Shown piece by piece: positions 7,390 to 48,857 of a stretch of 64,000 bases of DNA. Each line of letters begins with the position of its first letter. Within the stretch, counting starts at the first letter, position 1. The position numbers and the translations under genes are program-made. The notes beneath the pieces are model-generated. The model ran no database searches and had not been told where the DNA came from. It worked only from the letters and a program-made list of their open reading frames with translations. This DNA is from Deltaproteobacteria bacterium (GTDB lineage Bacteria > Myxococcota_A > Polyangia > Fen-1088), in the NCBI GenBank assembly GCA_033763315.1, contig JANRKS010000040.1:96001-160000 (forward strand), written 5' to 3'.

Positions 7390-8391
7390 TCAGCCGCCGC
7401 CGGCGTCGGGCACGGGCGCCAAGGATGCGGGCGGGGTGTAAGGCGCGAAAGCGGCCGCGGAAAGCCGTTCGGCGTTGAACGCGGCCAATTCGTGCGCGGA
7501 ATACGCGTGGGCCGAGCCGTACGGCAGGTTCATGCGTATGAACGAGAGAATCGCCGCGCGCATGGCGCCCGCACCCGACGCCCCCGCGTCGCCTTTGTCC
7601 TCTCGGCATTCATCCCAACGTGCGAACAGCAACTTGCGTCGCTCCGCCGTCGAAAGCGCGGTGTTGCCCCAGATCGCGGCAAGCTCACCCGTCAAAGAAA
7701 ACAGGGCCTGCCGTTCATTCTCTGCCTGCACCTTGAGACGTCGACAAAGCCGCTCCTCACGCGTGGCCTCGGCCAAACGATGCTGCTCATAACGATAGGG
7801 GTTCTCGCCCAGCTTCTTCATCACAGAATCGGTGACATCAAACACGATGCCGGCGCCTGCAATATGGGCGCTGGGATCAACAAAGCTTTCAATGCTGCCA
7901 TCGTCAGCCAGCTTCATCTTCACACCCGAGCGCCCCTCGATCACCTTTGCGTCTTTAGGCCCAGGGCTTCGCTTGATCACGTTGGGAACGCGGTTGGCAA
8001 ACATTTCATTTGGATCCTCGTCGCCCACCGGGGGCCCCACCATCGGCACCCGCGGCGCGGCCCGCAACGTCCACAACCGATCAACCGCCTCGTCCCCACG
8101 CACCGCGGGGGCGGTTTCGATTGTGGCTGGCTCCGAGGCGGGCACGGCACTTGTCCCCCGCACGCCAATGGCCGCGCGCGGCGGCCGGCCGGGCGCGGGC
8201 AACGCCTGCGGAACCTCTTTGAGTTCGGGAGTGGCCGCACGAGGCGTGATCGAGGGAGAGTAAACCACTTCAAGCTCAACGGCCGCGGGCGGATCCTGCA
8301 CAAGCGGATGGCTGCCCTTTCTCAAGAAGAGCACCAAAACGATGTGCACCACCGCGGAGGCCACGGTTGCCGCCCAAATGCGCCTCGACAC
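7390..8391 (-). CDS. Hypothetical membrane-anchored protein (myxobacterial type)
   Basis: N-terminal SAVVH TM (TonB-like anchor), Pro/Ala linker, C-terminal GENPY...ERRKLLFARWDEC. Confidence 0.7.
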   Translation of the reverse strand: MSRRIWAATVASAVVHIVLVLFLRKGSHPLVQDPPAAVELEVVYSPSITPRAATPELKEVPQALPAPGRPPRAAIGVRGTSAVPASEPATIETAPAVRGDEAVDRLWTLRAAPRVPMVGPPVGDEDPNEMFANRVPNVIKRSPGPKDAKVIEGRSGVKMKLADDGSIESFVDPSAHIAGAGIVFDVTDSVMKKLGENPYRYEQHRLAEATREERLCRRLKVQAENERQALFSLTGELAAIWGNTALSTAERRKLLFARWDECREDKGDAGASGAGAMRAAILSFIRMNLPYGSAHAYSAHELAAFNAERLSAAAFAPYTPPASLAPVPDAGGG

Positions 8392-8469
8392 CCGAGGACT
8401 CTAGCGCAGGTCTAGCGTCAGGGGGAAGCCGAGGCGCATGCCTGACTTGAAGCGGCTGCCTATTGTAGG

Positions 8470-8904
8470 ATGCCGCCCATGCCCACCATCAAGCTTGCGC
8501 CGACTCCGGAAGATCACCGGCTTTGTTTCCCCGTGATGAAACAACTGCGCCCACATTTGACGGAGGACGAATTCGTTGAACGCGTGGGCAGGCAGGCCCG
8601 CGAAGGTTACTTGCTGGCATACTTGGAAGATGAGGGTGAAGTTCGCGGGGTCGCCGGCTTTCGTATTTTCGAATGCCTTCACCAGGGGCGATTCCTTTAC
8701 GTCGACGATCTGGTGACGGACGAACGTTCACGGTCGCGCGGCTATGGCGATAAACTGTTTGATTGGCTCGCGGCTAAGGCGCGCGCCGACGGTTGCGAAG
8801 CACTCACCCTAGACTCTGGCGTGCAAAGACACGACGCGCACCGCTTCTACCTGCGTAAGCGCATGCGCATTGCTAGCTACCACTTCTCGCTGCCTCTTTC
8901 ATAA
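8470..8904 (+). CDS. GNAT family N-acetyltransferase
   Basis: LYVDDLVT, RSRGYG acetyl-CoA loop, LDSGVQR..AHRFY. Confidence 0.93.
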   Translation: MPPMPTIKLAPTPEDHRLCFPVMKQLRPHLTEDEFVERVGRQAREGYLLAYLEDEGEVRGVAGFRIFECLHQGRFLYVDDLVTDERSRSRGYGDKLFDWLAAKARADGCEALTLDSGVQRHDAHRFYLRKRMRIASYHFSLPLS

Positions 8905-8933
8905 AGGCCGCGGACGCGGCGTTCCGCTGCCCG

Positions 8934-10268
8934 TTAAGCGATGCCCGGCAACGTGCCGCTGTTGCGGGGACCAATGCCGAAGCTGTTGTCAGACATGCCG
9001 AACAACTGCATGATCGTCACGAACAAACGGTTTGTGGAAGACGTGCCGTTGGCGAAGCTGAGGAATCGATCGGTGCGAATTTTGCCGCCCAAGCTGCCAG
9101 CCAGAATAATGGGGATGCCCATGGTGCTGTGAGACGCGCCATCACCGTATTCGGTGATCCACATGACCAGCGAGTTATCCAACATGGTGCCGTCACCCTC
9201 GGGTACGGCGTTCATAGCGTCAAGAATGTCCTTGAACGCGCTGGCGTACCACGTGAAACCTTTTTGCAGCTCACTGGCAGGCGAGCGTTCGTGCACGCAT
9301 TGATGCCACCCCCCTGGTAAGGAAACGTTGCCCAGCCACGGGAAGCTTTGCGAATCGTAGTTCGTGTCCTGAATTGTGACGATCTGCGCGAAGTTGCAGG
9401 CCATCGCCATCGCGGCGTTCATCGCTTGAGCGCGGTTGACCTTCGAGCCATCGCCCGTTGGTAGCGTGCCAGGCGAGCCACATTTTGCCGCCAATCCACC
9501 TCCCGACGGGATCGGCGTGTTGACGCTTCCCAACTCCTTTTCGAGATCACTCAGACGCTGGGCGTGAATGTCGAGGCGCGTTTGATCCTCTTTGCCCAGT
9601 TGGTTGCGAACGCTCGTGAAGTTCTCCTTCACCAGCGATAGGATGTCTTTGTTCTTGGCGCGCAAACGATCGGCGGCGGTTGCTACAGGAACAGGCGGAG
9701 GTGCGCCACCACCTGTGGCGGGCAACGTCTTGAACAAGCGGTCGAACACCCGCTGAGGGTTGGCCTCGCCGCTGACCGATTGGCCCGGGCCGGAGAACAA
9801 CATCTGGTATTCGCCCACGCCATCGCCGTTGACCTTCAATTCAAGGCTTTTGACGCCCAGCTTTTGCTTCATGTACTGATCAATAGACGGGCCTTTGGCG
9901 GGGCTCCCTTCCCCGTTGGTGAAGTCATTGCATGACAAGATCGAACGCCCCGCCTTGTTGTGGCCGTTGCCACTCATCATGTCGCCGACGACGTTGTCGA
10001 CCGGGTGTAGCAAGTTCAGTTTCGACTTGTACTGATTGAGAGGCGTCAGCACGGGCGGCAAGGCCGCAGGCAACGCAGCACCCGAAGCCACGTTCGGCTT
10101 CCACAGGTTGATCATGTTGCCTTCACCGCTAAAGTAGATCAGCAAGCGCTTGGGGGCGCCCGTTTGCGCAAACGATTTCCCTGCCGTCAATTCAAGCCAG
10201 GGCAAGCCCAACACGGCGCCTGCGGAACCACGGATGAGCGTTCGTCGAGTGATGTTTTTGAAGTGCAT
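8934..10268 (-). CDS. DUF1552 domain protein (Tat-exported)
   Basis: TRRTLIRG twin-arginine signal, LGLPWLE, PSIDQ, NPQRVFDRLF, EGDGTMLDNSLV. Confidence 0.9.
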   Translation of the reverse strand: MHFKNITRRTLIRGSAGAVLGLPWLELTAGKSFAQTGAPKRLLIYFSGEGNMINLWKPNVASGAALPAALPPVLTPLNQYKSKLNLLHPVDNVVGDMMSGNGHNKAGRSILSCNDFTNGEGSPAKGPSIDQYMKQKLGVKSLELKVNGDGVGEYQMLFSGPGQSVSGEANPQRVFDRLFKTLPATGGGAPPPVPVATAADRLRAKNKDILSLVKENFTSVRNQLGKEDQTRLDIHAQRLSDLEKELGSVNTPIPSGGGLAAKCGSPGTLPTGDGSKVNRAQAMNAAMAMACNFAQIVTIQDTNYDSQSFPWLGNVSLPGGWHQCVHERSPASELQKGFTWYASAFKDILDAMNAVPEGDGTMLDNSLVMWITEYGDGASHSTMGIPIILAGSLGGKIRTDRFLSFANGTSSTNRLFVTIMQLFGMSDNSFGIGPRNSGTLPGIA

Positions 10269-10279
10269 TTTGAAACTCC

Positions 10280-11962
10280 TTACTGCACGCGCCGAAAACG
10301 GAACTCATCGGCGGTGACAACCGCCATAACCAGATCGCGCAAGCCTAAGCCAGAATCCGCGAACTTCTTCGCTACCCCTTGGATCGAGCAGCTGTCAGCG
10401 TCGCCGTCGGTCCTCGCATAGCTAAAGCGGAACAGTTGGCGCGACAAACACTCGTGCACCGCGGGGCTCTCAGCCAACCGGCCACCAAGATCGTTGAGCG
10501 AAGTGAACTTGCCCTCAAGCTCCTTCGACGCAGGCTCAACAAACTCACCGCTGGCGTCGATGGCCGAACCATCTTTGGCTTTTTGCCTGAACCGCCCCAG
10601 CTCGTCGAAAGCCTCGAAGCCGAAGCCCAGAGGATCGATCAAGTGGTGGCAGCCGCCACAACGGGGGTTAGCCACACGCACGGTCGATCGCTGCCGTTGG
10701 GTGGCATCCGCAGGCAAGGTAAGGCCCGTTTCAACTGTAAGAGCGTCGTTGGGGGGCGCCGGGAAGGCTTCGCAGGTAAGCTTCGTGCGGACGAACACGC
10801 TGCGGCGAATCGGCGAGGTATCGGTGGAACTGGCCAAACCCGTCAACAAAGCGGGCTGGGTTAACAACCCCGAACGGCCTGTGTAACCACCATTGGCCTT
10901 GATAAAGGCGTCCAAAGTTGGGTTGGCAAACGGCGCGTCTGACGTGAGAAACGTCTTTAAGGTTTTGCCATCGCTCAAGAAGCTGTCAGCCGCGAACTTC
11001 TCGAACTCTGATTGCATCGCTGTGGCAAGTTCAGCGGTATATAACTTGTCGGCCCGTTGACCAGCCGCGGGCAACTTGAAATGCGCCCACTCGCTCACGA
11101 AACGCGCGATGGTGGCACGCGCCTTCGGATCACCCAGCAAACGATCCGCTTGCGCACGAATGTCGTTGGCAGAGTTCAACTTGCCGGCAGCGGCCGCGTC
11201 CAATAACGCGTCGTCTGGAACGGAATCCCATAACAGAAACGACAAACGCGATGCCACTTCATAGCTTGTCAACGCAAGCACTTCGGCGCCCGAGTTGCTT
11301 CCGGCCTCCGTTTGATACGTGAATTCAGGCGAGTTCAAAATCGTTGCCACAACGGCAGCGATGCCGTCCTTGAAGGCGTCGGTGCCCGTGCCGAGTTTGA
11401 AGGCTTTGAGCAAGGTGGCCTTTTCGGAATCAAGCAAAGGCCGACGATAGGCGCGGCGGCCGTAAGTGTCGATGAAGGTTTGGGCACAGGCTTCGTTTGG
11501 CGTTGAAGCACACGGCAACAAAGTTGAAAGCTTATCGACCACCGAAAGCGGAATTGTGATGGCCGCATCATTGAGCTCGCGGGCCACGCCAAGATCAACG
11601 GCGTTGTACCCCGTGTCCGTGGTGAAACCAGACGTTGGCGCGCCCAAGGTTGGAATCGCAAAATCTTTGGGCAACGTGGCCTGGCCCTGAAAAATGTCAC
11701 GGATGGCGTTGCGGTACTGCACTTCCGTGAGCCTGCGCATGGGGACCGCCACCCGGCACGCACCGGGGGGGTTTGGTTCCACAGTGCCGCCACCGCCACC
11801 CGAGTCCCCACCGCCACCACCGCCGCGATCGCCACCAGACTCGCCGCCGGCTTGGCCCACGGAGCCAGTGCAGGCGCCACCCACCAGGGCGAAACCCGCA
11901 AACAGGAAGAACGCCGATCGAAATTCTTTGTGCAACACTTTTGAACCTCCTAGTGCCACCAC
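10280..11962 (-). CDS. DUF1592/1588/1595/1585 multi-domain lipoprotein
   Basis: MRRLTEVQY, RRAYRRPL, ASRLSFLLW..PD, SPIRRSVFVR, CGGCH, DPLGFGFEAFDELGRFR. Confidence 0.9.
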   Translation of the reverse strand: MVALGGSKVLHKEFRSAFFLFAGFALVGGACTGSVGQAGGESGGDRGGGGGGDSGGGGGTVEPNPPGACRVAVPMRRLTEVQYRNAIRDIFQGQATLPKDFAIPTLGAPTSGFTTDTGYNAVDLGVARELNDAAITIPLSVVDKLSTLLPCASTPNEACAQTFIDTYGRRAYRRPLLDSEKATLLKAFKLGTGTDAFKDGIAAVVATILNSPEFTYQTEAGSNSGAEVLALTSYEVASRLSFLLWDSVPDDALLDAAAAGKLNSANDIRAQADRLLGDPKARATIARFVSEWAHFKLPAAGQRADKLYTAELATAMQSEFEKFAADSFLSDGKTLKTFLTSDAPFANPTLDAFIKANGGYTGRSGLLTQPALLTGLASSTDTSPIRRSVFVRTKLTCEAFPAPPNDALTVETGLTLPADATQRQRSTVRVANPRCGGCHHLIDPLGFGFEAFDELGRFRQKAKDGSAIDASGEFVEPASKELEGKFTSLNDLGGRLAESPAVHECLSRQLFRFSYARTDGDADSCSIQGVAKKFADSGLGLRDLVMAVVTADEFRFRRVQ

Positions 11963-17024: not shown

Positions 17025-18971
17025 TTAACGCAGTAGCAATTGCAGTGCCGTCGTGGCCGTGGCCACGCCCTCGGCGATGCGTTCAAGTTGGACCCGCGTG
17101 GGAACGTCGCCCGCCAGTGCGGTTCGTTCAACCAAGGCCAAACGCCGCGCAAGTACGCGCGCGCCGATCATGCGCGCGTGCCCCTTCAAGTCATGCGCAA
17201 CCGCGGCCACATGATTTGAATCACCGAGCTCAGCTTGCTCTTGCAACTTGCGCAGCGATTGTGTCATCGCTGCGCAAACGCGCGGACCGAAAGTTTGCAA
17301 CAGGCTTGCGCCGCCCACGCTGGCGCTTTGCTTAAGGTCGTTGATTACCTTCGCATCTAGCACCGGCTTAGGCTTCTTTCGCGCGGACCGCACGCGCCGC
17401 GGCTGCGATTGGAGCAACAAGCGCTTTAGATCCGTCAAGCGCACGGGCTTGCCCAAGAAACCATCCATGCCGGCGTTCGAACAAGCTTGCCGATCTTCGG
17501 CCAGGACGTTGGCCGTCATCGCGTAGATGCGGGGCTGGCCGAGCGCACTTTGCCGAAGCTTCGTTGTTGTTTGTAGACCGTCCATGTCGGGCATCCGCAG
17601 ATCCATGAGCAACAGGTCGTAAGGCACTCGCTTTGCCATCTGCACCGCGGTGCGACCATTGGCAGCCACGTCGCTTGGAAAACCTAAGTGCCGAAGCATG
17701 GCCTGAGCCAATTCACGCGCCTCCGCATTGTCGTCCACAACAAGAATGCGGAGCTTCGGTTGATGCGCCGGTGGCTCCGGCTCGTAGGTGGGAGCCGGCG
17801 GCCTTGCTTGGCTTGCCCGCGCTTGAACAAACGGGACAACGGCCACGAAGCACGCCCCCTTGGGCTTTTTGCGGAATGTGAGCGAGCCGCCCATCGCCGT
17901 GGCCAGCTTGTGGCTAATCGCCAGGCCCAAGCCGCTGCCGCCGTAGCGCCGCGTGGTTGAAGCGTCGCCTTGCGAAAATGGCTCAAACAAACGCCTCGCG
18001 GCCTTGGCGTCGATGCCTATGCCGGTGTCAGATACCGCAAACGTGACATGTACACGCTGGCCCTCGCCCACGCGCGCGCGAACGTCTACGGTCACCGCAC
18101 CTCGTTCGGTGAATTTGACGGCGTTGTTTACCAAATTGGCAAGGATCTGTTGCACTCGATAGCTGTCACCGACCACAGAAAGCCGAGCCGAACGCGCCAA
18201 CTTCACATCTAAGGCTAGGCGCTTCTCTTTTGCTTTCGGTTTGATCGCTTCCACCACCGCCTGCACAACATCGACCACATCGAAACGGTGTCGCTCCAAT
18301 TGCGGCGTCACAGCTTGCAGTGATGAGAAATTCAAGATGTCATCAACGATCTTCAGCAGCATCTCGTTCTGCTGGCTCAAGATCTTAAGATAGCGTCGTT
18401 GTTCCGACGTCAGCTCCGTGCGCTCAATAAGTTGGGCATAACCCGAGATGCATTGGATAGGCGATCGTATCTCGTGGCTCATCGTGGCCAAAAAATCGCT
18501 TTTGGCGCGGTCAGCTTCTTCAGCGCGGGTCTTTGCTTGCCGAAGATCATCTTCGGCGCGCTTTCGCGCATCAACATCGCGGACGCTCGTGCGATACCCC
18601 TGCCATGTGCCGTCCGCGGCATACAAGGATTGCCACGAGATGGCGCCCCAGCGCGTCCCCCCATCCTTGCGCAGAATGCGGAACTCTAAATCATTGCCGC
18701 TTTGCCGCTGGGCAGCGCTTTGCAGCGCCTTGCGCACACGCGGGCGGTCGTCCTTATACACGAGGCGCAAAGGATAGTTGCGCATCGATAAGCACGCATG
18801 AACATCGAACCCTGTCATGCGCTCGACGGCGGGATTGATCCACCGCGTGACCCCCTGCGGGTCAACCCAGCTTTCCCAGTCGTACGTGTAATCGGCGATG
18901 GCGCGGAACAGCGCTGTTAGTTGTGGATCGGCAAACGCCCCCTGCGAGCTCACGATCGATTTCGGCATCAC
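17025..18971 (-). CDS. PAS-HisKA-HATPase-REC-Hpt hybrid histidine kinase
   Basis: MSHEIRSP H-box, NLVNNAVKFT, DTGIG, GSGLGL, DLRMPDMDG, AHDLKG Hpt motif. Confidence 0.95.
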   Translation of the reverse strand: MMPKSIVSSQGAFADPQLTALFRAIADYTYDWESWVDPQGVTRWINPAVERMTGFDVHACLSMRNYPLRLVYKDDRPRVRKALQSAAQRQSGNDLEFRILRKDGGTRWGAISWQSLYAADGTWQGYRTSVRDVDARKRAEDDLRQAKTRAEEADRAKSDFLATMSHEIRSPIQCISGYAQLIERTELTSEQRRYLKILSQQNEMLLKIVDDILNFSSLQAVTPQLERHRFDVVDVVQAVVEAIKPKAKEKRLALDVKLARSARLSVVGDSYRVQQILANLVNNAVKFTERGAVTVDVRARVGEGQRVHVTFAVSDTGIGIDAKAARRLFEPFSQGDASTTRRYGGSGLGLAISHKLATAMGGSLTFRKKPKGACFVAVVPFVQARASQARPPAPTYEPEPPAHQPKLRILVVDDNAEARELAQAMLRHLGFPSDVAANGRTAVQMAKRVPYDLLLMDLRMPDMDGLQTTTKLRQSALGQPRIYAMTANVLAEDRQACSNAGMDGFLGKPVRLTDLKRLLLQSQPRRVRSARKKPKPVLDAKVINDLKQSASVGGASLLQTFGPRVCAAMTQSLRKLQEQAELGDSNHVAAVAHDLKGHARMIGARVLARRLALVERTALAGDVPTRVQLERIAEGVATATTALQLLLR

Positions 18972-18980
18972 CCCACCAGA

Positions 18981-19607
18981 TTAAAGCCACCCGCGTTCTA
19001 TGGCATGCCTCGTGACGTCCGCGGCGTTGCTGGCCCCTAGCTTCTTCATCACATGCAAACGATGGTTGCCTACCGTCTTGACGCTCAACTGCAGCTCAGA
19101 AGCAATCGCCTTGCTGCTTTTGCCCCGAGCGATCATCATCGCGACCTGCTTCTCGCGCACCGTGAGCTCATCCCCGGCGGGCCCATGAGTTGTCAAGCGC
19201 AGCAACCGCAGCGACGTTGGGCAATAGTAGGCGCCCCCACGAGCCACAGTTTCTACGGCCGTCTGCAGGTCCGCCAACGACACACCCTTCATAACGATGC
19301 CGTGAACGCCAAGCTGTGACGCTTGTTGCGTAACCTCCAAACGCTCACTCGCCGTTAGCACCAACACGCGTGTGTGAGGCAGTTTGTTTTTCAAGCGCGC
19401 CACGACGTCTAGGCCACTGCCATCGGGCAGCACCACATCCACAACCAACAACGCTGGGGCGAGTGCAGGCAGTTCTGCGACGGCCGCCGCAGCCGTCGAG
19501 AACTCACCAACGATCTGTGCGCCCAGCTTGGTGACAAGGATCTGGGCCAGCATCTCGCGGAAGATCGTCTGATCGTCCACAAGGGCTATGCGTAGAGGTG
19601 CGGGCAA
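18981..19607 (-). CDS. NarL/LuxR family response regulator
   Basis: LVDDQ, VDVVLPDGSG, LTVREKQV...SVKTVGNHR HTH. Start uncertain (TTG at 19607). Confidence 0.92.
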   Translation of the reverse strand: MPAPLRIALVDDQTIFREMLAQILVTKLGAQIVGEFSTAAAAVAELPALAPALLVVDVVLPDGSGLDVVARLKNKLPHTRVLVLTASERLEVTQQASQLGVHGIVMKGVSLADLQTAVETVARGGAYYCPTSLRLLRLTTHGPAGDELTVREKQVAMMIARGKSSKAIASELQLSVKTVGNHRLHVMKKLGASNAADVTRHAIERGWL

Positions 19608-19634
19608 AGGTGAATCCGAGGAAATGAAAGCTTC

Positions 19635-19673
19635 TAGGGTACAAAACCCGGCCGACCTGGGGTGTATTCCCCA
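19635..19673. promoter_or_regulatory. Two palindromic boxes in the divergent promoter region
   Basis: TAGGGTACAAAACCCG (19635-19650) and TGGGGTGTATTCCCCA (19658-19673). Confidence 0.4.
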
Positions 19674-19725
19674 TACCGACCGCAGGGCGTCACCGTCAGA
19701 GTTTACTGAAACCAAGGAGGATCAT

Positions 19726-20133
19726 ATGAACACTCTCAAAGTCGCTGTCCTGACGCTGGCCCTACCCCTTTTGGGCGCGAACACCGCCGCCGCCGCGATG
19801 ACCTGCGGTACAAGCGACGCCCTCCAAGGCGTTACCCACGTGAAACCCCTACAGGAAACCTTTAACGTCGGCAAGGCGGAGCTCACTCGTCGCGCGGGCG
19901 CGCGGCTTTTCATTCCTGCCGAGGCTGGAATGTCGGTGCCATACTTGCAGCGCCAGCTGAACTGCCGCGTGCAAACGGCCGGTGGCGGGCAAAACGATCC
20001 GTTGTCCGTACCGAAGGTCAAAGCCACCGTCTCCGCGGCTGGTGAATACTTTGTTGTTGATCTGCGGGCGTCCACATTGGCCGATGCAAAAGAAGTGCAA
20101 CGCCGGTCAGAGCTGTTGTTGCAGGGCAAGTGA
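19726..20133 (+). CDS. Small secreted hypothetical protein
   Basis: AAGGAGG RBS, MNTLKVAVLTLALPLLGANTAAA signal peptide, two Cys. Confidence 0.8.
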   Translation: MNTLKVAVLTLALPLLGANTAAAAMTCGTSDALQGVTHVKPLQETFNVGKAELTRRAGARLFIPAEAGMSVPYLQRQLNCRVQTAGGGQNDPLSVPKVKATVSAAGEYFVVDLRASTLADAKEVQRRSELLLQGK

Positions 20134-20144
20134 GGTAGCGCTGG

Positions 20145-21059
20145 TCACATCCTGTCATCGGTGCCGTCATCTGATGCGGTTCCGATGATGGGATTGGCGC
20201 TTGTGGGCAACATGGCGGCCTCGATGGGCCGCATGTCATTGTCGAAGCCTCGGAAGGCAACGGTGCGTGCCCCACGCAGCTGAGCGAGATCGTAAAGCTG
20301 GTTGTAGGCCGTAAACACGGCGGGGATCTGACGCAAGCGTTCCAACGCTCGTCCTACAGCCAGCAAGTATTGTGATTTGGCCTCTGCAACGAGCGTGGCC
20401 ACACGTTTGGAAGTCTCGGCCTCCAACGCCGCAGCATCCAAGCGCCCCTTTTCGACAACAACCGCGCGGGCTCGTTCCAAGCGCGTGGCCACTGTGCCGA
20501 AGACTTGACGTGAAACCTCTGGCAAGAGCGACACGTGGCGGATGAACACGCGTTCCACTTTCACGCCCCAACGCAACGTTTCACCAGATACGTCTCGCTC
20601 CAGCAGAGCCCCAAGTTCGCTGCGATCGTCAAGGATCTGTTGAAAGTCGCGGCTCCCGAGAATCGACATCGCCGCGTGAACCACCAAGTTTTGCGTGGCC
20701 TGATCCCAGTCTTCCACCGCGAACAACGCCTTCTCAGCGTCCACCACGCGGACCTCAACCCACAAATCCGCCACCACCGTCGTTCCGCGCGCATCGTTGA
20801 TGTGCAGGTCGTGGATAATGCGAAAATCCAAGGCCCGCGATACGTGATGCACCTTCACCCACGGCAACCATTTGCCCGGCAGCACGTGCAGCCCAGGTTT
20901 TTCTAGCTTGGCGACGATTCTGCCAAAGCTCGTGACCAAAGCCACGTGCTCATCTTCGACAGCCACACCGAAGCCCCGGGCGATACGACCCAAAACAGAC
21001 AAGCCAGCGGCACCCGCGGCCGCCCCGCCAAACAACATCAACCAATCCTGGGCGTTCAC
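20145..21059 (-). CDS. SPFH/band-7 domain protein
   Basis: N-terminal TM, LVTSFGR...KPGLH, WGVKVERVFI, coiled-coil tail. Start overlaps the upstream stop (GTGA). Confidence 0.9.
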   Translation of the reverse strand: MNAQDWLMLFGGAAAGAAGLSVLGRIARGFGVAVEDEHVALVTSFGRIVAKLEKPGLHVLPGKWLPWVKVHHVSRALDFRIIHDLHINDARGTTVVADLWVEVRVVDAEKALFAVEDWDQATQNLVVHAAMSILGSRDFQQILDDRSELGALLERDVSGETLRWGVKVERVFIRHVSLLPEVSRQVFGTVATRLERARAVVVEKGRLDAAALEAETSKRVATLVAEAKSQYLLAVGRALERLRQIPAVFTAYNQLYDLAQLRGARTVAFRGFDNDMRPIEAAMLPTSANPIIGTASDDGTDDRM

Positions 21060-21934
21060 AGCGTTTTTCCTTCGTTTAGGTACATGGTGCGTGACTCAGA
21101 AAGCACCTCGGCCTTCCTGCGTTCAACGTAATCGCGCAGCACTCCGGCTTCGTGCAGAACTGCCAGATTTCGCCCCAGCTCCTGTATTTCATTCTCAACC
21201 GCCGCAGCTTTGGCGCGGGCAATCTCCACGCCGCGGTTGGCGGCCATCAGCTTCTGCGCGCATTCACCTTCCGCACGAAACCGCAAGCCATCCGCTTCGG
21301 CCCGCGCGCTCATGACGGCATTCAAAGCGTCAGCCATCTCTTCGGGAGGATGGATGTCGGTGATGTCCACGGCCTCGAAGTGCACGCCGTACCGATCGCC
21401 CAGTTCAGCCTTGGCGAAGTCACCGATGCGTTTGTTAAGCAGTTGCCGATCTCGACGCACCAGACCGAACGATCCGCCCACATCGTCTTCAATCGTTGTG
21501 ATGTCGGTGGTGTGAGGAGGCGATTTCACGTTCGCAATCTCGTTGCGCAGGAGGCTCGAAAACAAGCCCGCCACGTGTTCCTTGCGATGGACAAGCCCGA
21601 ACAGATACTTCGCGATGCCGTCGCGTTGAGGAGCGTAGCGAAGCATTGACTGGAGACGAATCACCGTTCCGTCGGCCAACATCATCGGTTCTGCGCCGTG
21701 TTGACCGCCCAAGGTCACGAGCTGTTCACGCAGCGAAACCACACGCACCTCGTCGAATGACCATTTGAGGTGAGCGCCAGGACCAAACAGCCGTAGGCTG
21801 CCGTCAGGATTGTGCAACGCTGCCCCAAAACGCAGCACGACCGCGGCGCAGCCTTCTTCCACCCGAAAGCCGCAATCCTTCGCCATCCAAGCCACAAACA
21901 AGCCAACACCCAGCACGATCCCTAAGATAAACAT
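21056..21934 (-). CDS. SPFH/band-7 domain protein
   Basis: N-terminal TM, AVVLRFG...GPGAH, YGVHFEAVDITDIHPP, Ala/Glu coiled coil. Confidence 0.9.
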   Translation of the reverse strand: MFILGIVLGVGLFVAWMAKDCGFRVEEGCAAVVLRFGAALHNPDGSLRLFGPGAHLKWSFDEVRVVSLREQLVTLGGQHGAEPMMLADGTVIRLQSMLRYAPQRDGIAKYLFGLVHRKEHVAGLFSSLLRNEIANVKSPPHTTDITTIEDDVGGSFGLVRRDRQLLNKRIGDFAKAELGDRYGVHFEAVDITDIHPPEEMADALNAVMSARAEADGLRFRAEGECAQKLMAANRGVEIARAKAAAVENEIQELGRNLAVLHEAGVLRDYVERRKAEVLSESRTMYLNEGKTL

Positions 21935-21958
21935 TCTCGTCGATCCTTTCGCAGACGG

Positions 21959-24085
21959 TCAAAAACGTTCGACAGACGCGCGCGCCCACGCCTCGCCCCA
22001 AACCGGCGGTTCGTCAATGGCGGTGGTTAACCGTGGCGTGGTGTGGCCCGCTTGCACCATGCGTCGATAAGCCGCCGCCAGGCCTCGATTCACATCAACC
22101 ACGTCTTCGTTGAAATGTTGATGTGCCATCGTCACGGGCGGCAAGGCATCAGCTTTCGCCTGTGTGTCTATGATGCTTCCGTGAGGCACAAAACGATTGT
22201 CCGGGACCTCAACACCCACGACGACGGCCCCAATGCCTATGGAACAATGGCTGCCCACAACAGCGTCGTGCACAACCGCTTTGAACCCAATGAAAGTGTC
22301 GTCGCCCACATACGAAGGCCCATGAACAAGCGCATCGTGGGCCATAGAAACATTGCGGCCCACGTACACAGCCCAGCGTTCGCCGCCGACGATCACGTGC
22401 TTCTGCTTCAAGGCGTGAATCACCACGCCGTCTTGAATGTTTGAATTGGGCCCAATGAAGAAGGGGGCGCCCTCATCGGCACGGACCGAACTGCCCGCGG
22501 CCACGTGAACGTTATCGCTCAAGATCACTTGCCCAATGACTGTGGCTTGTGGATGTACGAAGGCGGTTGCAGGAATGAAGGGCTGGCTCCTTACGTGCGC
22601 GATCCACTCGCTGGCGCTGCCGGTGGTGTCCGCTCGCAGTTTGCGCGCACCCGCACGCTCAACAGGAAGCACCGCCCTGATGCCGGGAGGGTGAGGTGAA
22701 GTCATCGCCTCTAGGGCAGCTTTGGCGTCCTTGCGGTGGAACAGCAGATAGTCGAGCGCGGAAATCACGAGGCCTGCCACGAGGCCCAGCATCAGATGAC
22801 CCGTGACGGTGCCAGCGGCGGTGACCAAGAAGGCCAAGGCCTGCAGCTTCGCCGTTCGCACCAAGTGAACCAGGGTGGGCACATCCACCAGCCGCACACC
22901 GATGACGCACAGAAGGCCCGCCAGAGCCGCCAGTGGCACCCGTGCGATCAGCGAACCCATCAGTAAAACCGCGGCGCCCAAGAACACCGCGTGCAACATG
23001 GTGGCCACCTTGGTGCGAGCACCGCTCTGCACGTTCACGCCACTGCGAACAACAACACCGGAAACGGGCATCCCCGTAAACAGCCCTGAAGCAATGTTCG
23101 CCAACCCCTGTCCTAGCAACTCCAAACTCGGGTGGTGAGGGCGGATTACGTTCTTACCTTGCATGCGGTCCACCGCGCGCGCGGCAAGCAGCGACTCTGC
23201 GGACGCCAGAAAAGCGATAGGCAAAGTTGCCGTGATCAATTCAACGAGGCGCTCCGTGGGAACCAGCGGAAAGCGAAACGGTGGTAGTGAAGACGGCACA
23301 TCGCCCACGCGCGTGATGTCCCACCCGACGTAGTTCGCGATGAAGGTGACAAGGCCAGCGCCTACGATTGCCGCCGGAAAGCGTTTCCATCGCGACGTTC
23401 CAACGATCAACAAGGCCACCGCGAGGCCCGATACCACCGCCAGCCATTCAACTTTGTGCAACCAGTCTGGCTTGTGCAGCATCATCGCCAGCTCATAGAC
23501 GCGGTAGTCGAAACCCAGCAGTTCAGGAATTTGCTGGTCCAGCAGTTTGATGCCAACGCCCGTCGTGAACCCTGCGAGCACACTCTCAGGGACGTGCTTC
23601 ATCACGTGACCTGCGCGTGTGAACGCGAGCAAGAGCTGGAACGCCCCCACCATCACAGCCGCCAAAGCGACGCCCACCGGACCAAAACGCAAGGCCACGA
23701 CAGCCACGATGGATGACAACGCGGCCGCGGGGCCCGTGACCTGCAAAGGTGCGCCGCCCACGAATCCGGCCACGAAGCCGCCGATCGCCCCCGCCACTAA
23801 ACCGGCGGCGGGTGGCAAACCGCTGGCCACCGCCAACGCAAGATTAAGCGGCAAGGCCACGGCGGCCACCGTCAGTCCCGCCAAGACGTCTTGGGGTAGA
23901 CTTTTTTGCGCCACCACGTCTGCGAAAGAACCGGTGAAAGACCGATACATCGATCGCCAATCTTGGTACAGCGGCTCCCAGATCGTTCGCTCTTTCAGAA
24001 CCGGCCCTCGGCTAACCCGCCGGGGTTGAACAGGCGGATGATGACCCCGGGTCGCCTTGGGTGTATCGGTCGAACTTGGAATCAC
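21959..24085 (-). CDS. SulP/SLC26 anion transporter fused to a C-terminal CcmM/Cam-like gamma-carbonic anhydrase
   Basis: DVLAGLTVAAVALPL, GPAAAL, GFTTGVG, ELLGQGLAN, SGART SulP motifs; then VRADEG...NIQDGVVIHAL...AHDALVHGP hexapeptide beta-helix. No STAS domain visible. Confidence 0.92.
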   Translation of the reverse strand: MIPSSTDTPKATRGHHPPVQPRRVSRGPVLKERTIWEPLYQDWRSMYRSFTGSFADVVAQKSLPQDVLAGLTVAAVALPLNLALAVASGLPPAAGLVAGAIGGFVAGFVGGAPLQVTGPAAALSSIVAVVALRFGPVGVALAAVMVGAFQLLLAFTRAGHVMKHVPESVLAGFTTGVGIKLLDQQIPELLGFDYRVYELAMMLHKPDWLHKVEWLAVVSGLAVALLIVGTSRWKRFPAAIVGAGLVTFIANYVGWDITRVGDVPSSLPPFRFPLVPTERLVELITATLPIAFLASAESLLAARAVDRMQGKNVIRPHHPSLELLGQGLANIASGLFTGMPVSGVVVRSGVNVQSGARTKVATMLHAVFLGAAVLLMGSLIARVPLAALAGLLCVIGVRLVDVPTLVHLVRTAKLQALAFLVTAAGTVTGHLMLGLVAGLVISALDYLLFHRKDAKAALEAMTSPHPPGIRAVLPVERAGARKLRADTTGSASEWIAHVRSQPFIPATAFVHPQATVIGQVILSDNVHVAAGSSVRADEGAPFFIGPNSNIQDGVVIHALKQKHVIVGGERWAVYVGRNVSMAHDALVHGPSYVGDDTFIGFKAVVHDAVVGSHCSIGIGAVVVGVEVPDNRFVPHGSIIDTQAKADALPPVTMAHQHFNEDVVDVNRGLAAAYRRMVQAGHTTPRLTTAIDEPPVWGEAWARASVERF

Positions 24086-24179
24086 GGTCGCCGCAGCTTA
24101 TGCGGGTAGAGAGCAAATTACCAGCGTTCCTCTCGCGCCTTTTAAGAACAGTCCACGCGACACCCGGCCCAAGGCCGAA

Positions 24180-24216
24180 TAAGGCAAAGGGCGCAGCACC
24201 TATGTGCCGCGCCCTT
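24180..24216 (-). terminator. Probable intrinsic terminator after the Cys-rich gene
   Basis: Minus strand AAGGGCGCGGCAC-ATAG-GTGCTGCGCCCTT followed by TGCCTTATT. Confidence 0.6.
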
Positions 24217-24237
24217 ACTTTTCAAAGCATCGTCTTC

Positions 24238-25656
24238 CTATCGGCAGGTTTGCGTGACGTTAGCCGCATCGGATCCAACGCAGCCCACGTTGGCCAACCA
24301 CGAACAGGTTCTGTACGTGCCCTTTTGCCCGCATTGCGGCACCTTGGTGATCCATCCCGAGCGGAATGAGCACAACAACCTCGACGCGGCACCAACGCAG
24401 GTGGCAGACGCCAACGATGAATCGAACGGCTCCTCCACTTTGTTGCAGTTGTAATCGAACGAGCCCGAGCCCACCAAACAGAGGTTCAAATTATTGGGGC
24501 AGTAGGCAGTCGGGAAAAACGCGGTTTGAGCGGGGTTGGCGGAAGCCGCGCGCGGACCACAATCGATCGTATCCACAGCCACGGGCTTGGTGCGCGTGTA
24601 ACCCGCGGGGCAAACACCGCTCGCCGTGATGGCACCTGTCACCGATGAGGCGTAGCCGTCCTTGTCGGTGTCAACGTAGCATTCGCAAGACGGCGCCACA
24701 GTGTCCGACGTAGCGGTCGAACAATCGTTGTCCTTGCCGTCTTTGCACTCAAACGCGCCCGGGAAGACAGCCGGATCCGCGTCGTTGCAGTCAACGTTGC
24801 ACGCCTTTCCGTCTTTATCGCCGTCGCCATAACTGCAGGCGCCCGTGGCGGGATCGCACATGCCCGACATTGTGCAAGTCGCCGCCGTACACACCACCGC
24901 CGTACCGGCAGCACACTTGTGCGTGTTGGTGTCGCAAGTCTCGTCGCCGTTGCACTTGTTGCCGTCGTTGCAGTCGGCGCTGGCAGCACAAGTGAATTTA
25001 CATTCACGGGTGCAACCGTCGTCATCATTGGCGTTGCCGTCGTCGCACTGTTCACCGGCATCCACCGCACTGTTGCCACAGCTGGCGGTCACGCATGCGT
25101 TGTTGCTGCACTTGCCTGCGGCACCACCTGGCAACATGCACGCTGAGCCCGCGGTCGCTGGGGTGCCGGCTTTACAAACGGGTTTCAGAGGCATCGTCTT
25201 GTCGCAAGTCTCAACGCCTGTGCAAGCATTGCCATCGCTGCAATCAGAATCTGCCTTGCAATCAAACCGACAGGATGAGCAGCCATCGCCAGTAACTTCG
25301 TTGCCGTCTTCGCAGTCTTCGCCTTGAGCCACGTCAACGTAGCCATCGCCGCAGCTGGAAGCGACACAGATCTTCTGCAAACACACACTGCCAGCGGCAC
25401 ACACGGTGCCATCGGCCTTGTCCGTGCATTCGACTTCAAGGATGGCGTCTTGCTGTGTGTCCCCTGAAGCTAGAGCGTCACTGCCGCTGTCCAACAAGGT
25501 GACCGTGCCATCAGTGGTGGACCCGTCAGGAGAAACAGCGCCATCAACATTGTTATCGTCGTCCGAGCCACAGGCGCCTATGACGAAAAGGCTGAGGACT
25601 GCAAGACCGCTTAAACCTAAAGGCAACCAAGTTTGTCGACTGCTTGACGTACGCAT
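24238..25656 (-). CDS. Myxobacterial cysteine-rich repeat lipoprotein
   Basis: GGAGG RBS, IGACG lipobox, CGDG..EDCEDGN..GDGC repeats, DCNDADPAVFPGA metal-binding-type repeat. Confidence 0.88.
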   Translation of the reverse strand: MRTSSSRQTWLPLGLSGLAVLSLFVIGACGSDDDNNVDGAVSPDGSTTDGTVTLLDSGSDALASGDTQQDAILEVECTDKADGTVCAAGSVCLQKICVASSCGDGYVDVAQGEDCEDGNEVTGDGCSSCRFDCKADSDCSDGNACTGVETCDKTMPLKPVCKAGTPATAGSACMLPGGAAGKCSNNACVTASCGNSAVDAGEQCDDGNANDDDGCTRECKFTCAASADCNDGNKCNGDETCDTNTHKCAAGTAVVCTAATCTMSGMCDPATGACSYGDGDKDGKACNVDCNDADPAVFPGAFECKDGKDNDCSTATSDTVAPSCECYVDTDKDGYASSVTGAITASGVCPAGYTRTKPVAVDTIDCGPRAASANPAQTAFFPTAYCPNNLNLCLVGSGSFDYNCNKVEEPFDSSLASATCVGAASRLLCSFRSGWITKVPQCGQKGTYRTCSWLANVGCVGSDAANVTQTCR

Positions 25657-25837
25657 CGTTCCTCCACAACAGAAGTTAGGGCCTGACCGGCGCCGAAATT
25701 TGGCGCGCCTCATCGTACGCTCAGAATGGCCATCAATAAAGCGGATGGATGCGAAAGAGCGGCACACGTACACGCACATCGCCCACAAGGCAAGGCTTCA
25801 GTCGCCCGAGACTGCCCACGGCCGGGTGAAACGTTCT

Positions 25838-46934: not shown

Positions 46935-47174
46935 AAGGGCATTCTCGGCGGAAAAGAGCCTAACTTAACTATCAGACCCCAACGCCAGGATTGCCTCGCG
47001 TAACCCGTACGCCACGCCACAAATTGCTTTCGAAAGAACACTGTTTTCAGGATGTTACGCGGATAACACGCGGTGTCTCCGGCGCGCGCAGCAAACGCCT
47101 CGCGTCTTTCCTATTCTCTCGCTCTTCTAGCCCTCCTTTGTTATGGTGAAGCCGCAAGGGCAACGGGGGGGACC

Positions 47175-48353
47175 ATGGTGGCAGTCACAACGGTGTTGTT
47201 GATCGACGACAACGATCTCGTTCGACAGGCGTTCCGCAGAATCCTTCAACTGGCGGGGTTCGCTGTATTAGAGGCCGACGGCGGCGAGACGGGGCTCGAA
47301 CTGTTTCGCGAAGCCTCGCCGGCGGCGGTCCTCGTGGATTTGCGCATGCCGGGTCTTGATGGGCTGGAAGTTCTATCGCGCCTCTCACAAGAGGCACCGG
47401 AGACGCCTGTGATCGTTGTTTCCGGAGAGGGATCGATGTCCGACGCTTTGGCCGCCCTGCGGTTCGGCGCGTGGGACTATGTTACTAAGCCGTTGCTGCA
47501 ATCAGAGATTTTGGCGCAAACGGTGACGCGTGCGCTCGATAAGGCCCGGTTGCTGAAGGAGAACCGCGAACATCGCGCGCGGCTTGAGGTGTTAAATGAT
47601 CAACTTACCAAGGCCCTCGACGAGATTCGCAGCGATCAGGAAGCGGGCCGGCGTTTGCAGCACCAGCTGCTGCCTCCCGATCAACAGCGCATGGGTCACT
47701 GGAAGTTCAGCCGGCGCATCTTTCCGTCGCGGGCTCTAAGTGGTGACTTCGTTGACTATTTCAAACTTGGCGAAGGATACGCTGGGCTTTACCTTACCGA
47801 TGTGGCTGGTCATGGCGCGGCTTCAGCGTTTGTGACCGCTATGATAGTGGCGTTGGTTGCAAAATATCGTGAAGCTTATGCTTCGGGTTTAAGCGACCTT
47901 ATCTTGGAGCCAGAGCGGTTCTTGGAACAACTGAACCGCGATTTGTTTGGCCGCGGTCTAGACAAGCACGCCACCATGTTTTACGCCGTGGTGGAGTTAA
48001 AAAGTGACGTGATGGTGTACGCGAACGCGGGGCAGTATCCATTTCCTGCTTTGTTCGGGCGGCGCTACCCGCGTTTTTTGGAGGTTCCCGGGCGCCCCCT
48101 AGGGCTTTTTCCTGACGCGCGTTACACCCGTGGTGAACTGTCGCTGGCGCAGGTTGACCGCTTGGTGGTTGTGTCTGACGGCATGTTGTCCACCACCACT
48201 CAGCAAACCAGCACCCAAAGGTTGGATATGTTGCTGAAGCTGGGAGCCTCCGCGAACGATGTGGATGCGTTGGCACTGGCTTTGGGCACCGGGGAAGGAC
48301 ATCCCTGTGAAGATGACGTCACGCTTTTGTTTGTAGAAAGGAGCGCAGTTTAA
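47175..48353 (+). CDS. REC-PP2C (SpoIIE-like) phosphatase response regulator
   Basis: DLRMPGLDG, SGDFVDY, DVAGHG, SDG, EDDVT. Confidence 0.92.
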   Translation: MVAVTTVLLIDDNDLVRQAFRRILQLAGFAVLEADGGETGLELFREASPAAVLVDLRMPGLDGLEVLSRLSQEAPETPVIVVSGEGSMSDALAALRFGAWDYVTKPLLQSEILAQTVTRALDKARLLKENREHRARLEVLNDQLTKALDEIRSDQEAGRRLQHQLLPPDQQRMGHWKFSRRIFPSRALSGDFVDYFKLGEGYAGLYLTDVAGHGAASAFVTAMIVALVAKYREAYASGLSDLILEPERFLEQLNRDLFGRGLDKHATMFYAVVELKSDVMVYANAGQYPFPALFGRRYPRFLEVPGRPLGLFPDARYTRGELSLAQVDRLVVVSDGMLSTTTQQTSTQRLDMLLKLGASANDVDALALALGTGEGHPCEDDVTLLFVERSAV

Positions 48354-48857
48354 ATGCCAATGGGACGCGTGCTTTATTCACAAGATGGCGGCCTGCATAC
48401 ACTGCGGTACGTGGGCGAAATCAAATACCCCATTGCCCCTTCCATAGACAAATTCGTTAAAACGTTGATTCAGAACAACGCGATCGACGACCTGGTGGTG
48501 GATTTGACCGAAACCGATTCCATCGACAGCACGAATTTGGGGGAGCTCGCGCGGATTGCGCTGCGGCTGCGGGAACAGGGGCGCCGCAAGCCAGTGATCG
48601 TGTCGCCGCAAACCTCGATCAATCACCTTTTGCGCAGCATGGCGCTCGATGAGGTCTTCGAGTTAACCGTGCAAGTCCAACCGTTTGATGGCGACGACAT
48701 CCCCACCGACGTGGAGACGACGCGCGAGGAGTTGGCCGCCGTGATGTTGGAATCGCACAAGAGCCTTGCGCAAATGGGCGAAGCCAACCGCCAAAAGTTT
48801 TGCGACGTGATTGCGTTGTTGGAAAAGGACGCCAACAAGCCACGCGGCCACAGCTAG
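48354..48857 (+). CDS. STAS-domain anti-sigma factor antagonist
   Basis: VDLTETDSIDSTNLG phospho-Ser motif; directly follows the PP2C gene. Confidence 0.9.
   Translation: MPMGRVLYSQDGGLHTLRYVGEIKYPIAPSIDKFVKTLIQNNAIDDLVVDLTETDSIDSTNLGELARIALRLREQGRRKPVIVSPQTSINHLLRSMALDEVFELTVQVQPFDGDDIPTDVETTREELAAVMLESHKSLAQMGEANRQKFCDVIALLEKDANKPRGHS

Follow-up and report, generated by a model that had tools for sequence, protein, structure and literature searches.

A 64,000-nucleotide stretch of genomic DNA from a Deltaproteobacteria bacterium of the Polyangia (Myxococcota_A; Fen-1088), comprising positions 96,001 to 160,000 of contig JANRKS010000040.1 (assembly GCA_033763315.1) and referred to below as the window, contains a compact locus in which a gene for a transporter–enzyme fusion is followed by two genes for SPFH proteins (Table 1). 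Gene 1 encodes a SulP-type membrane domain that ends without a STAS domain and continues into a domain of the gamma class of carbonic anhydrases (CAs), and genes 2 and 3 encode the SPFH proteins SPFH_A and SPFH_B. The first two genes are separated by 24 nucleotides (21935–21958), and the last two overlap by 4 nucleotides (21056–21059). An earlier, preliminary description of this DNA had reported three minus-strand genes with this spacing, and the list of open reading frames (ORFs) gives identical coordinates; it had also regarded the two SPFH genes as co-transcribed with the fusion. The two SPFH genes share one orientation and are probably translationally coupled.

Table 1. Features of the locus, with positions in the window.
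Feature	Position	Strand	Basis
Gene 1: STAS-less SulP transporter fused to a gamma-CA	21959..24085	-	ORF, 708 residues from GTG; Pfam, NCBIfam, AlphaFold2 (AF2) model, Foldseek
Putative N-terminal cytoplasmic extension of gene 1, residues 1–45, containing RRVSRG	23951..24085	-	tblastn alignments; similar stretch in P0036 and P0047
SulP/SLC26 membrane domain of gene 1, residues 65–450, predicted complete 14-helix core	22736..23893	-	Pfam, AF2 superposition, hydropathy
Linker in place of STAS, residues 451–497, mostly low-confidence	22595..22735	-	predicted local distance difference test (pLDDT) below 50 at model residues 435–454; no STAS match
Cam/CcmM-type gamma-CA domain, residues ~498–680	22046..22594	-	PDB alignments; invariance in 67 sequences; superposition
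Disordered C-terminal tail of gene 1, residues 681–708	21962..22045	-	pLDDT below 50 at model residues 643–663; end conserved
Gene 2: SPFH_A, HflC-like SPFH protein with N-terminal membrane anchor	21056..21934	-	ORF, 292 residues; Band_7
Gene 3: SPFH_B, stomatin/QmcA/HflK-like SPFH protein	20145..21059	-	ORF, 304 residues; Band_7; AF2 model; Foldseek
Terminator-like hairpin	24189..24214	-	directly past the stop codon of the upstream gene; RNA fold -26.5 kcal/mol, z -5.1, then UUUGCCUUAUU, U-rich tail

Architecture of the encoded proteins

In the gene 1 product, the Pfam family Sulfate_transp was matched over essentially its whole profile (positions 3–380 of 380; residues 65–422, E = 7.3e-65, 219.6 bits against a cut-off of 23.2) and no STAS domain (PF01740) was detected, as the preliminary description had stated for the end of the membrane domain. 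No STAS domain was found in six relatives from a sample of the phylum, and PF01740 is absent from the 120 listed homologues, 118 of which match PF00916. An AF2 model of the product, computed with 25 homologues (mean pLDDT 77), can be superposed on the transmembrane part of SLC26Dg (5iof), with a TM-score by target of 0.83 in 390 columns, and on BicA (6ki1), with one of 0.82 and an identity of 27%, the membrane-domain matches to these two carriers spanning 0.82–0.84 overall; the full 14-helix SLC26 core is therefore predicted to be present. The hydrophobic core stops near residue 450 in the hydropathy profile and is followed by HRKDAK. Since the C-terminus of the SLC26 fold is cytoplasmic, the CA domain is placed in the cytoplasm. 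The product scores far below the cut-offs of the NCBIfam equivalogs BicA (147 against 880), DauA (202 against 614) and TIGR00815 (199 against 380). In the linker that follows, the columns G468, R470, A471, R481 and W494 are conserved in an alignment of 67 orthologues, which consists of the window sequence and 66 genome loci.

Within the C-terminal part, Pfam recognises a Hexapep/LbH region (residues 572–640) and gives no match to the beta-class family Pro_CA (PF00484). The NCBIfam models of the CcmM N-terminal domain and of Cam match this part with E values of 4.6e-58 and 7.6e-56, and the closest solved structures are CcmM209 (3kwc; E = 1.7e-49, 47% identity) and Cam (1qrg; E = 1.4e-47, 46% identity). 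The modelled domain, a left-handed beta-helix with a C-terminal helix, superposes with a root-mean-square deviation of 0.9 Å on 3kwc (174 columns) and 1.2 Å on Cam (3otm/1qrm), and its acidic loop is shorter than that of Cam, as in CcmM. The motifs named in the preliminary description, which had assigned the domain to the gamma class with its catalytic and zinc-ligand positions, are all present: RADEG at residues 535–539, NIQD at 549–552, and the histidines of IHAL (His557), AHD (His583) and VHGP (His588). Mapped through the PDB alignments, H557, H583 and H588 correspond to the zinc ligands H81, H117 and H122 of Cam, while R535, D537 and E538 correspond to R59, D61 and E62, and N549, Q551, D552 and N666 to N73, Q75, D76 and N202, seven residues that we take to be catalytic in Cam. 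All ten positions are intact and invariant across the 67 orthologues, and relatives of 30–40% G+C still show the motifs RADEG and NIQDG..IHALK. The invariance of this set suggests an active enzyme, and the CA domain is predicted to be catalytically competent.

The disordered tail that closes the protein has a conserved end, W..W....(D/E)RF-COOH, in which the last residue is Phe in 65 and the penultimate residue Arg in 60 of the 67 orthologues. Among relatives of low G+C content, this end is kept in L078 (DRF) and L100 (KF) and not in L107 and L114. One guess is that the tail might serve as a docking motif for a partner.

Both SPFH proteins match the Pfam family Band_7/SPFH (65.3 bits for SPFH_A and 57.4 bits for SPFH_B; cut-off 23.6), each has one N-terminal hydrophobic anchor according to hydropathy, and the two are very divergent paralogues that align along their entire length (21% identity; hhalign probability 96.7%). 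In profile searches of the PDB, SPFH_A is closest to HflC (7vhp_G, E = 9e-15), and SPFH_B matches stomatin (5.6e-19), QmcA (3.3e-15) and HflK (3.3e-10). HflK and HflC proper are ruled out by the NCBIfam equivalog scores, which lie far under their cut-offs (29 against 427 and 23 against 134 for the HflC models; 29.5 against 159 for the HflK model). SPFH_B is the member of the pair for which a structure was modelled; the AF2 model (pLDDT 86) consists of the anchor helix, the SPFH domain, a 64-residue helix (180–243) and a second helix, and Foldseek matched it to full-length chains of stomatin, HflK/C, prohibitin, QmcA and erlin, all from PDB entries titled complexes, cages or oligomers. Judged from this model, the build of SPFH_B is of the cup-forming kind. 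Ahead of the anchor, the flank carries a net positive charge in 0 of 67 SPFH_A and 7 of 67 SPFH_B sequences; a net negative charge is seen in 30 of the 67 SPFH_B sequences. The residues after the anchor include about 2 (SPFH_A) and 1.4 (SPFH_B) Lys or Arg. This charge distribution suggests that the SPFH domains may face the cytoplasm, the side on which the enzyme is placed, which is opposite to HflK/C, whose SPFH domains are periplasmic.

The operon has neither an NfeD nor a protease partner, no Pfam family being assigned to the ORFs that flank it, and no fourth gene is conserved in 81 loci, a search for NfeD elsewhere in the genome not being part of this survey. A complex prediction for SPFH_A, SPFH_B and residues 452–708 of the fusion, with alignments of 67 rows, gave no answer (score 0.00 in both runs, the controls not being folded), and neither supports nor opposes binding. 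A search with SPFH_A for fused forms among longer proteins (512–2000 residues) gave no match at E ≤ 1e-20 among 7997 scored, a result of little evidential weight. In one locus from a Polyangiales metagenome-assembled genome (MAG), L036 (about 8100–9800), the SPFH_A frame runs into SPFH_B to give 563 residues; this is probably an assembly frameshift, the near-twin L034 having two normal genes. The genome that contains the window has a second, unrelated pair of adjacent SPFH genes (contig C17:138498–140443, L084), whose products show identities of 28% to SPFH_A and 24% to SPFH_B and receive no NCBIfam name; it sits between a gene for a 455-residue protein with a twin-arginine-like N-terminus and one for a NapC/NirT-type multihaem cytochrome.

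Conservation of the gene triplet and origin of the fusion

A degenerate-pattern scan of one genome per species detected relatives in 155 genomes, and the best 80 loci were kept. The carriers are myxobacteria and predatory bacteria related to them, with titles that include Archangium, Cystobacter fuscus, Labilithrix luteola, Polyangiaceae, Sandaracinaceae, Myxococcaceae and one Bacteriovoracaceae MAG. In 78 of the 80 loci the fusion is directly followed by SPFH_A, and the two exceptions (L045 and L051) end within 40 nucleotides past the fusion gene; SPFH_B is present in 74, and the other six end before it. The three genes have the same order and strand in all 74 complete loci, an arrangement that is not due to chance. 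With start codons as chosen in this analysis, the median gap between the fusion and SPFH_A is 12.5 nucleotides (n = 78), and the 4-nucleotide overlap of SPFH_A and SPFH_B recurs in 59 of 74 loci. Beyond the triplet, the flanks hold no conserved gene; the best cluster is found in 12 of 81 loci, at mixed positions. The operon is kept in contigs whose G+C content extends from 30% (L107), 39% (L078) and 40% (L100) up to 74%. Metagenome contigs yielded 22 further STAS-less fusions, some of which may come from the same organisms as the genome loci; SPFH_A accompanies all 22 and SPFH_B 21, the last contig ending first.

The exclusivity of this association was examined in 401 genomes drawn evenly from the phylum of the window. 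The CA domain was matched at E ≤ 1e-20 in 16 of them. Nine of these matches show 61–68% identity (100% for the genome of the window itself) and lie in frames of 683–856 residues in eight cases and of 260 residues in one, the combination of Sulfate_transp and hexapeptide without STAS being confirmed in 6 of the nine; the remaining seven matches, with 47–53% identity and frames of 223–350 residues, are stand-alone enzymes. Orthologues of SPFH_B (47–60% identity, E ≤ 1e-72) are confined to the nine genomes of the first group, all of which have one on the same contig beside the CA match, and are missing from the seven genomes whose Cam-type CA stands alone; the only other SPFH_B match in the 401 genomes is a 29%-identical paralogue. 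The three genes are thus co-inherited strictly and exclusively, and the view of the preliminary description that the SPFH pair is dedicated to the fusion is borne out by both the genome loci and this sample.

The ancestry of the CA domain was examined in a maximum-likelihood tree (careful IQ-TREE; bootstrap not fully settled) of 119 domains. Of 161 proteins considered, 123 covering query positions 25–180 were kept and five cluster-mates or fragments dropped, and the resulting 118 rows were joined by the genome's own CamH-type protein as outgroup. The SulP-linked CA domains form a single clade of 21 rows (UFBoot 99/SH-aLRT 97), and the CcmM-like proteins a separate clade of 12 rows (100/99). 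The term CcmM-like used in the preliminary description therefore holds at the level of the Cam/CcmM subclass and fails in its specific sense: the fusion belongs to a distinct SulP-linked clade rather than with CcmM, the gene 1 product has none of the RbcS-like repeats (PF00101) that number 4–5 in CcmM-like representatives, and its score against the NCBIfam CcmM model is 197 against a cut-off of 550. The STAS-bearing proteins P0140/P0275 (100/99) and P0133 fall within the SulP-linked clade and outside a 15-row STAS-less group (92/77). With an assumed rooting, this topology fits an order of events in which a SulP–STAS–gamma-CA fusion arose first and STAS was lost later.

STAS-bearing combinations of SulP and gamma-CA were found in four metagenome contigs, namely a fused SulP–STAS–CA gene of 852 residues (L091), a SulP–STAS gene followed by a CA gene (L115), the reverse order (L099) and a CA gene flanked by two SulP–STAS genes (L092), and over at least 2.9 kb downstream none of them has an SPFH pair. 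In every case examined, loss of STAS coincides with presence of the SPFH pair, in lineages that are related and do not represent independent events. Separately, three proteins of ~820 residues (P0122, P0123 and P0126) are built from Cam-type gamma-CA-like stretches, five or six in tandem, and carry no further Pfam domain.

The absence of carboxysome genes, stated in the preliminary description for the window, extends to the whole genome (7.63 Mb, 90.85% complete), in which no gene for a bacterial microcompartment (BMC) shell protein was found and the only RuBisCO-family match is an OiaX-like RuBisCO-like protein encoded beside an OiaK-like kinase. A remnant of CcmM or of a carboxysome is ruled out by the missing RbcS-like repeats, the missing BMC shell gene and the separate CA clade, and autotrophy by the Calvin–Benson–Bassham cycle is rejected on account of the OiaX-like nature of the RuBisCO-family match; no form I RuBisCO gene was found in the genome. 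The OiaX-like gene itself (contig C9:42421–45129, L083) scores best as one for an OiaX-type 3-oxo-isoapionate-4-phosphate decarboxylase, below the cut-off (490 bits against 700), and with the kinase gene and an inositol-dehydrogenase-like gene as neighbours it looks like part of a sugar-acid pathway and not of carbon fixation.

Proposed function and alternative explanations

Fusions of SulP carriers to beta-class CAs are known from the Rv3273 type and were reportedly treated by Felce and Saier in 2004. In A. ferrooxidans, the can2–sulP genes link a SulP carrier to a beta-CA, and STAS is absent in that SulP clade (PMC6458275, available passages); in M. capsulatus, a beta-CA3/SulP operon has been described (PMC11423575, available passages). 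These accounts agree with the statement in the preliminary description that known SulP–CA fusions use beta-class enzymes. The locus in the window resembles these systems in that a SulP carrier without STAS (PMC6458275, as above) is linked to a cytoplasmic CA with the same proposed role in bicarbonate/CO2 conversion, the direction being left open. It differs in that their enzymes belong to Pro_CA whereas the one encoded here is of the Cam/CcmM-type gamma class, and in that the available passages of PMC6458275 and PMC11423575 mention no SPFH genes; the role given there is likewise a proposed one and not a biochemical finding. Compared with the known SulP–CA fusions, the one described here combines a gamma-class enzyme with a missing STAS domain and an obligate SPFH pair. 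In the literature, no paper was found on a gamma-CA–SulP fusion or its link to SPFH proteins, supplements (e.g., Supplementary Figure S2 of PMC6458275, on sulP–can microsynteny and fusions) lying outside the search; on related themes, it turned up reviews of the cyanobacterial carbon-concentrating mechanism and beta-class cases alone.

The individual parts have further counterparts. BicA (6ki1) shares the 14-helix SLC26 fold, but keeps its STAS domain, has no fused enzyme and differs from the gene 1 product in transmembrane helices 8 and 10; cells that use BicA avoid CA activity in their cytosol. Cam of Methanosarcina thermophila and the N-terminal domain of CcmM share the beta-helix and the zinc and catalytic residues, whereas the CA of gene 1 is fused to a transporter, falls into its own clade and has neither the signal peptide of Cam nor the repeats of CcmM. 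In mammals, the carriers AE1 or SLC26A6 together with carbonic anhydrase II form a debated, non-covalent bicarbonate transport metabolon, which likewise places a CA at the cytoplasmic face of a bicarbonate carrier; its enzyme is an alpha-class monomer, unlike the covalently fused, trimeric gamma-class enzyme expected here. For the SPFH pair, the counterparts are the cups of HflK/C–FtsH, QmcA–YbbJ and stomatin (7vhp, 8z5g, 9oh9), which share the sequence of anchor, SPFH domain and long helix and, as presumed here, a membrane transporter as client. The hflK and hflC genes are also an adjacent pair, as are the overlapping genes of SPFH_A and SPFH_B, for which a heteromer is predicted. The pair described here departs from HflK/C in its sub-cut-off scores, its putative cytoplasmic orientation and its operon without NfeD or protease partner, and from SPFH cups in general in that its client is genetically fixed, the pair having been found beside this fusion alone in the genomes sampled. 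Stomatin assembles 16 subunits into a cup on the cytosolic leaflet and is found in association with solute carriers (PMC13724742), has been reported as a modulator of the bicarbonate exchanger AE1 (PMC5383999) and, in a structure matched by Foldseek, has aquaporin-1 as a bound client (9zd2); these cases are analogies and not homologous systems.

Taken together, the three genes probably encode one membrane machine, in which a bicarbonate carrier with a tethered CA would be organised by a dedicated SPFH assembly, although this is put forward with no more than reasonable confidence. Bicarbonate is suggested as the transported ion because SulP carriers are repeatedly linked with CAs of two unrelated classes. 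The carrier would move bicarbonate across the membrane, and the CA, which would have replaced STAS at the end of a flexible linker of ~45 residues, would interconvert bicarbonate and CO2 on the spot at the cytoplasmic mouth, forming a hard-wired "bicarbonate transport metabolon" whose flux would not be limited by the slow uncatalysed reaction. Because each active site of a gamma-CA is built from two neighbouring subunits of a trimer, the fusion would have to trimerise at least. SPFH_A and SPFH_B, presumably made in coupled amounts, would form a heteromeric cup or ring with cytoplasmic SPFH domains, in putative contact with the fusion, and fence the transporter into its own membrane patch. As to direction, uptake of bicarbonate with immediate dehydration may be very slightly preferred to bicarbonate export, the two being almost evenly balanced, on the precedents of BicA and of the low-CO2 induction of can2–sulP. 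In the case of uptake, dehydration would supply inorganic carbon or consume protons; in the case of export, metabolic CO2 would be hydrated and the bicarbonate driven out by the membrane potential, which would acidify the cytoplasm and serve pH homeostasis.

Several observations weigh against this interpretation. The residues of the presumed anion site are mixed, with Arg347 of transmembrane helix 10 (VVRSGVN) as in SULTR proteins (SULTR4;1) and prestin and unlike BicA, and with Glu297 of transmembrane helix 8 as in SLC26Dg, against Asp in BicA; they do not single out bicarbonate, and the substrate does not appear to be readable from the sequence. At the position of Cam Glu84, presumably the proton shuttle, Lys560 (about 22406–22408) is found in at least 90% of the 67 orthologues, and the position of Cam Tyr200 is occupied by Asp664, with Asp or Glu in orthologues, so that the catalytic rate may differ from that of Cam. 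CcmM209, titled "oxidized, active" in the PDB, has Gln and Gly at these two positions; because it is termed active without either residue, their loss is no argument against catalysis. SulP carriers are dimeric in solved structures, as the title of 8zzv states for SLC26Dg, and this symmetry has to be reconciled with that of a trimeric gamma-CA; one may speculate that the loss of STAS and the addition of a bounding cup are two ways of doing so. The proposed orientation of the SPFH domains has a single basis, the positive-inside rule. Finally, the genome also encodes one beta-CA (Pro_CA, contig C35) and one CamH-type gamma-CA, and it is not obvious why a third CA, tethered to a carrier, should be needed. 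With regard to the Glu84 position in other SulP-linked proteins, Lys is also found in P0140/P0275 and Glu in the STAS-bearing P0133.

A more far-reaching form of the proposed machine, which we regard as unlikely, has a closed SPFH cup enclosing the transporter and the CA trimer to form a membrane-attached, protein-walled nano-chamber, in which bicarbonate would be confined while CO2 passes freely. Such a chamber would allow vectorial conversion of CO2 and bicarbonate in a heterotroph independently of carboxysomes, and the cup would have taken over the role of the lost STAS domain and would also cap the otherwise open-ended assembly of a dimer-prone carrier with an obligate trimer. If this were true, it would be the first SPFH assembly known from bacteria whose client is identifiable and fixed genetically and whose chemical purpose is defined.

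Other explanations place the emphasis on a different ion or on one of the parts. The fusion might be an exchanger for another anion (sulfate, chloride or oxalate), with the CA making or removing the bicarbonate counter-ion, as in Cl-/HCO3- exchange of the SLC26A3/A6 type, and with movement of the other anion as its purpose. The arginine in transmembrane helix 10, common to SULTR4;1, prestin and other SLC26A proteins, and the scores far under the BicA and DauA cut-offs would suit such an exchanger, and as no Sulfate_transp gene other than the fusion was found in the genome, the carrier may also have sulfate or other anions to serve. Yet the conserved neighbourhood is devoid of genes for sulfur or other-anion metabolism, and the repeated, independent linkage of SulP carriers with CAs of two classes is most simply explained by bicarbonate itself (PMC6458275). 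We therefore rate this alternative as rather unlikely, and even if correct it would refine the proposed bicarbonate machine more than oppose it, bicarbonate still being transported.

Lower again is the chance that the SPFH pair acts as a gate for quality control or turnover, like HflK/C–FtsH, governing protease access or chaperoning assembly while leaving catalysis and flux unaffected. The closeness of SPFH_A to HflC, the presence of HflK among the matches of SPFH_B and the possible need of a membrane domain joined to a trimeric soluble domain for assisted assembly point in this direction; no protease gene is conserved beside the operon, however, the scores against the HflK and HflC models are far too low, and the orientation suggested here is opposite to that of HflK/C. 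Such a role would be compatible, in partial overlap, with the dedicated SPFH assembly proposed above. Very improbable is a beta-helix domain without enzymatic function, retained as a trimerisation or regulatory module in place of STAS, as with CcmM domains that are inactive or with the gamma-CA-like subunits found in mitochondrial complex I. Gamma-CA folds have indeed been reused as scaffolds in CcmM and complex I, and the PDB matches include 7ar7 and 7o4z; moreover, Glu84 and Tyr200 of Cam are not conserved. But the invariance of the zinc and catalytic residues, together with the retention of their motifs at low G+C content, is hard to explain without selection for catalysis.

The interest of the locus extends beyond its precise mechanism. 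The functions of bacterial SPFH assemblies are known for very few clients, and a client fixed by the genome provides a natural SPFH scaffold–client pair for structural and genetic work across 30–74% G+C, with Cystobacter fuscus, Archangium violaceum and Labilithrix luteola as cultured carriers. The covalent fusion of transporter and CA offers a direct test of the "transport metabolon" concept without the ambiguity of weak non-covalent binding, and it poses a structural puzzle by joining an enzyme that has to form trimers to carriers whose solved structures are dimers. Little is also known about the ways, apart from soluble CAs, in which bacteria that are not autotrophs manage inorganic carbon and pH.

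Transcription unit, gene start and neighbouring genes

The three genes look like a transcription unit of their own because the terminator-like hairpin separates them from the upstream gene (24238–25788, ending at 24238), which encodes a Cys-rich DUF4215/MopE-type protein. A scan for sigma-70-like promoters gave 1 site against 0.9 expected by chance, and none was assigned; no Rfam family was found in 19400–24600. The public gene call for the gene 1 product begins at Met46 (= 23950) and gives 663 residues (P0003), but in tblastn searches the relatives align from query residues 2–5 in several loci, which makes the longer GTG start plausible. No RNA run containing the locus is listed, which is uninformative on expression, and the locus is present in two DNA metagenome runs at small shares (0.14 and 0.05).

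The product of the upstream gene is secreted or lipoprotein-like, with DUF4215 and MopE-type metal-binding motifs; the gene is not conserved as a neighbour of the operon, and its paralogue on contig C5 is 50% identical, with weaker repeats on contigs C3, C11, C32 and C40. Downstream, two-component genes (18981–19715 and 17025–18971) are likewise not conserved beside the operon. Elsewhere in the window, a gene for a response regulator–SpoIIE phosphatase followed by one for a stand-alone STAS-domain protein (47073–48857) constitutes a partner-switching pair, which lies ~25 kb from the STAS-less transporter with no evidence of a connection. Adjacent genes with DUF1552 (HXXSHH) and DUF1592/DUF1588/DUF1595/DUF1585 are located at 8934–11962, a pair typical of Planctomycetes-type genomes.

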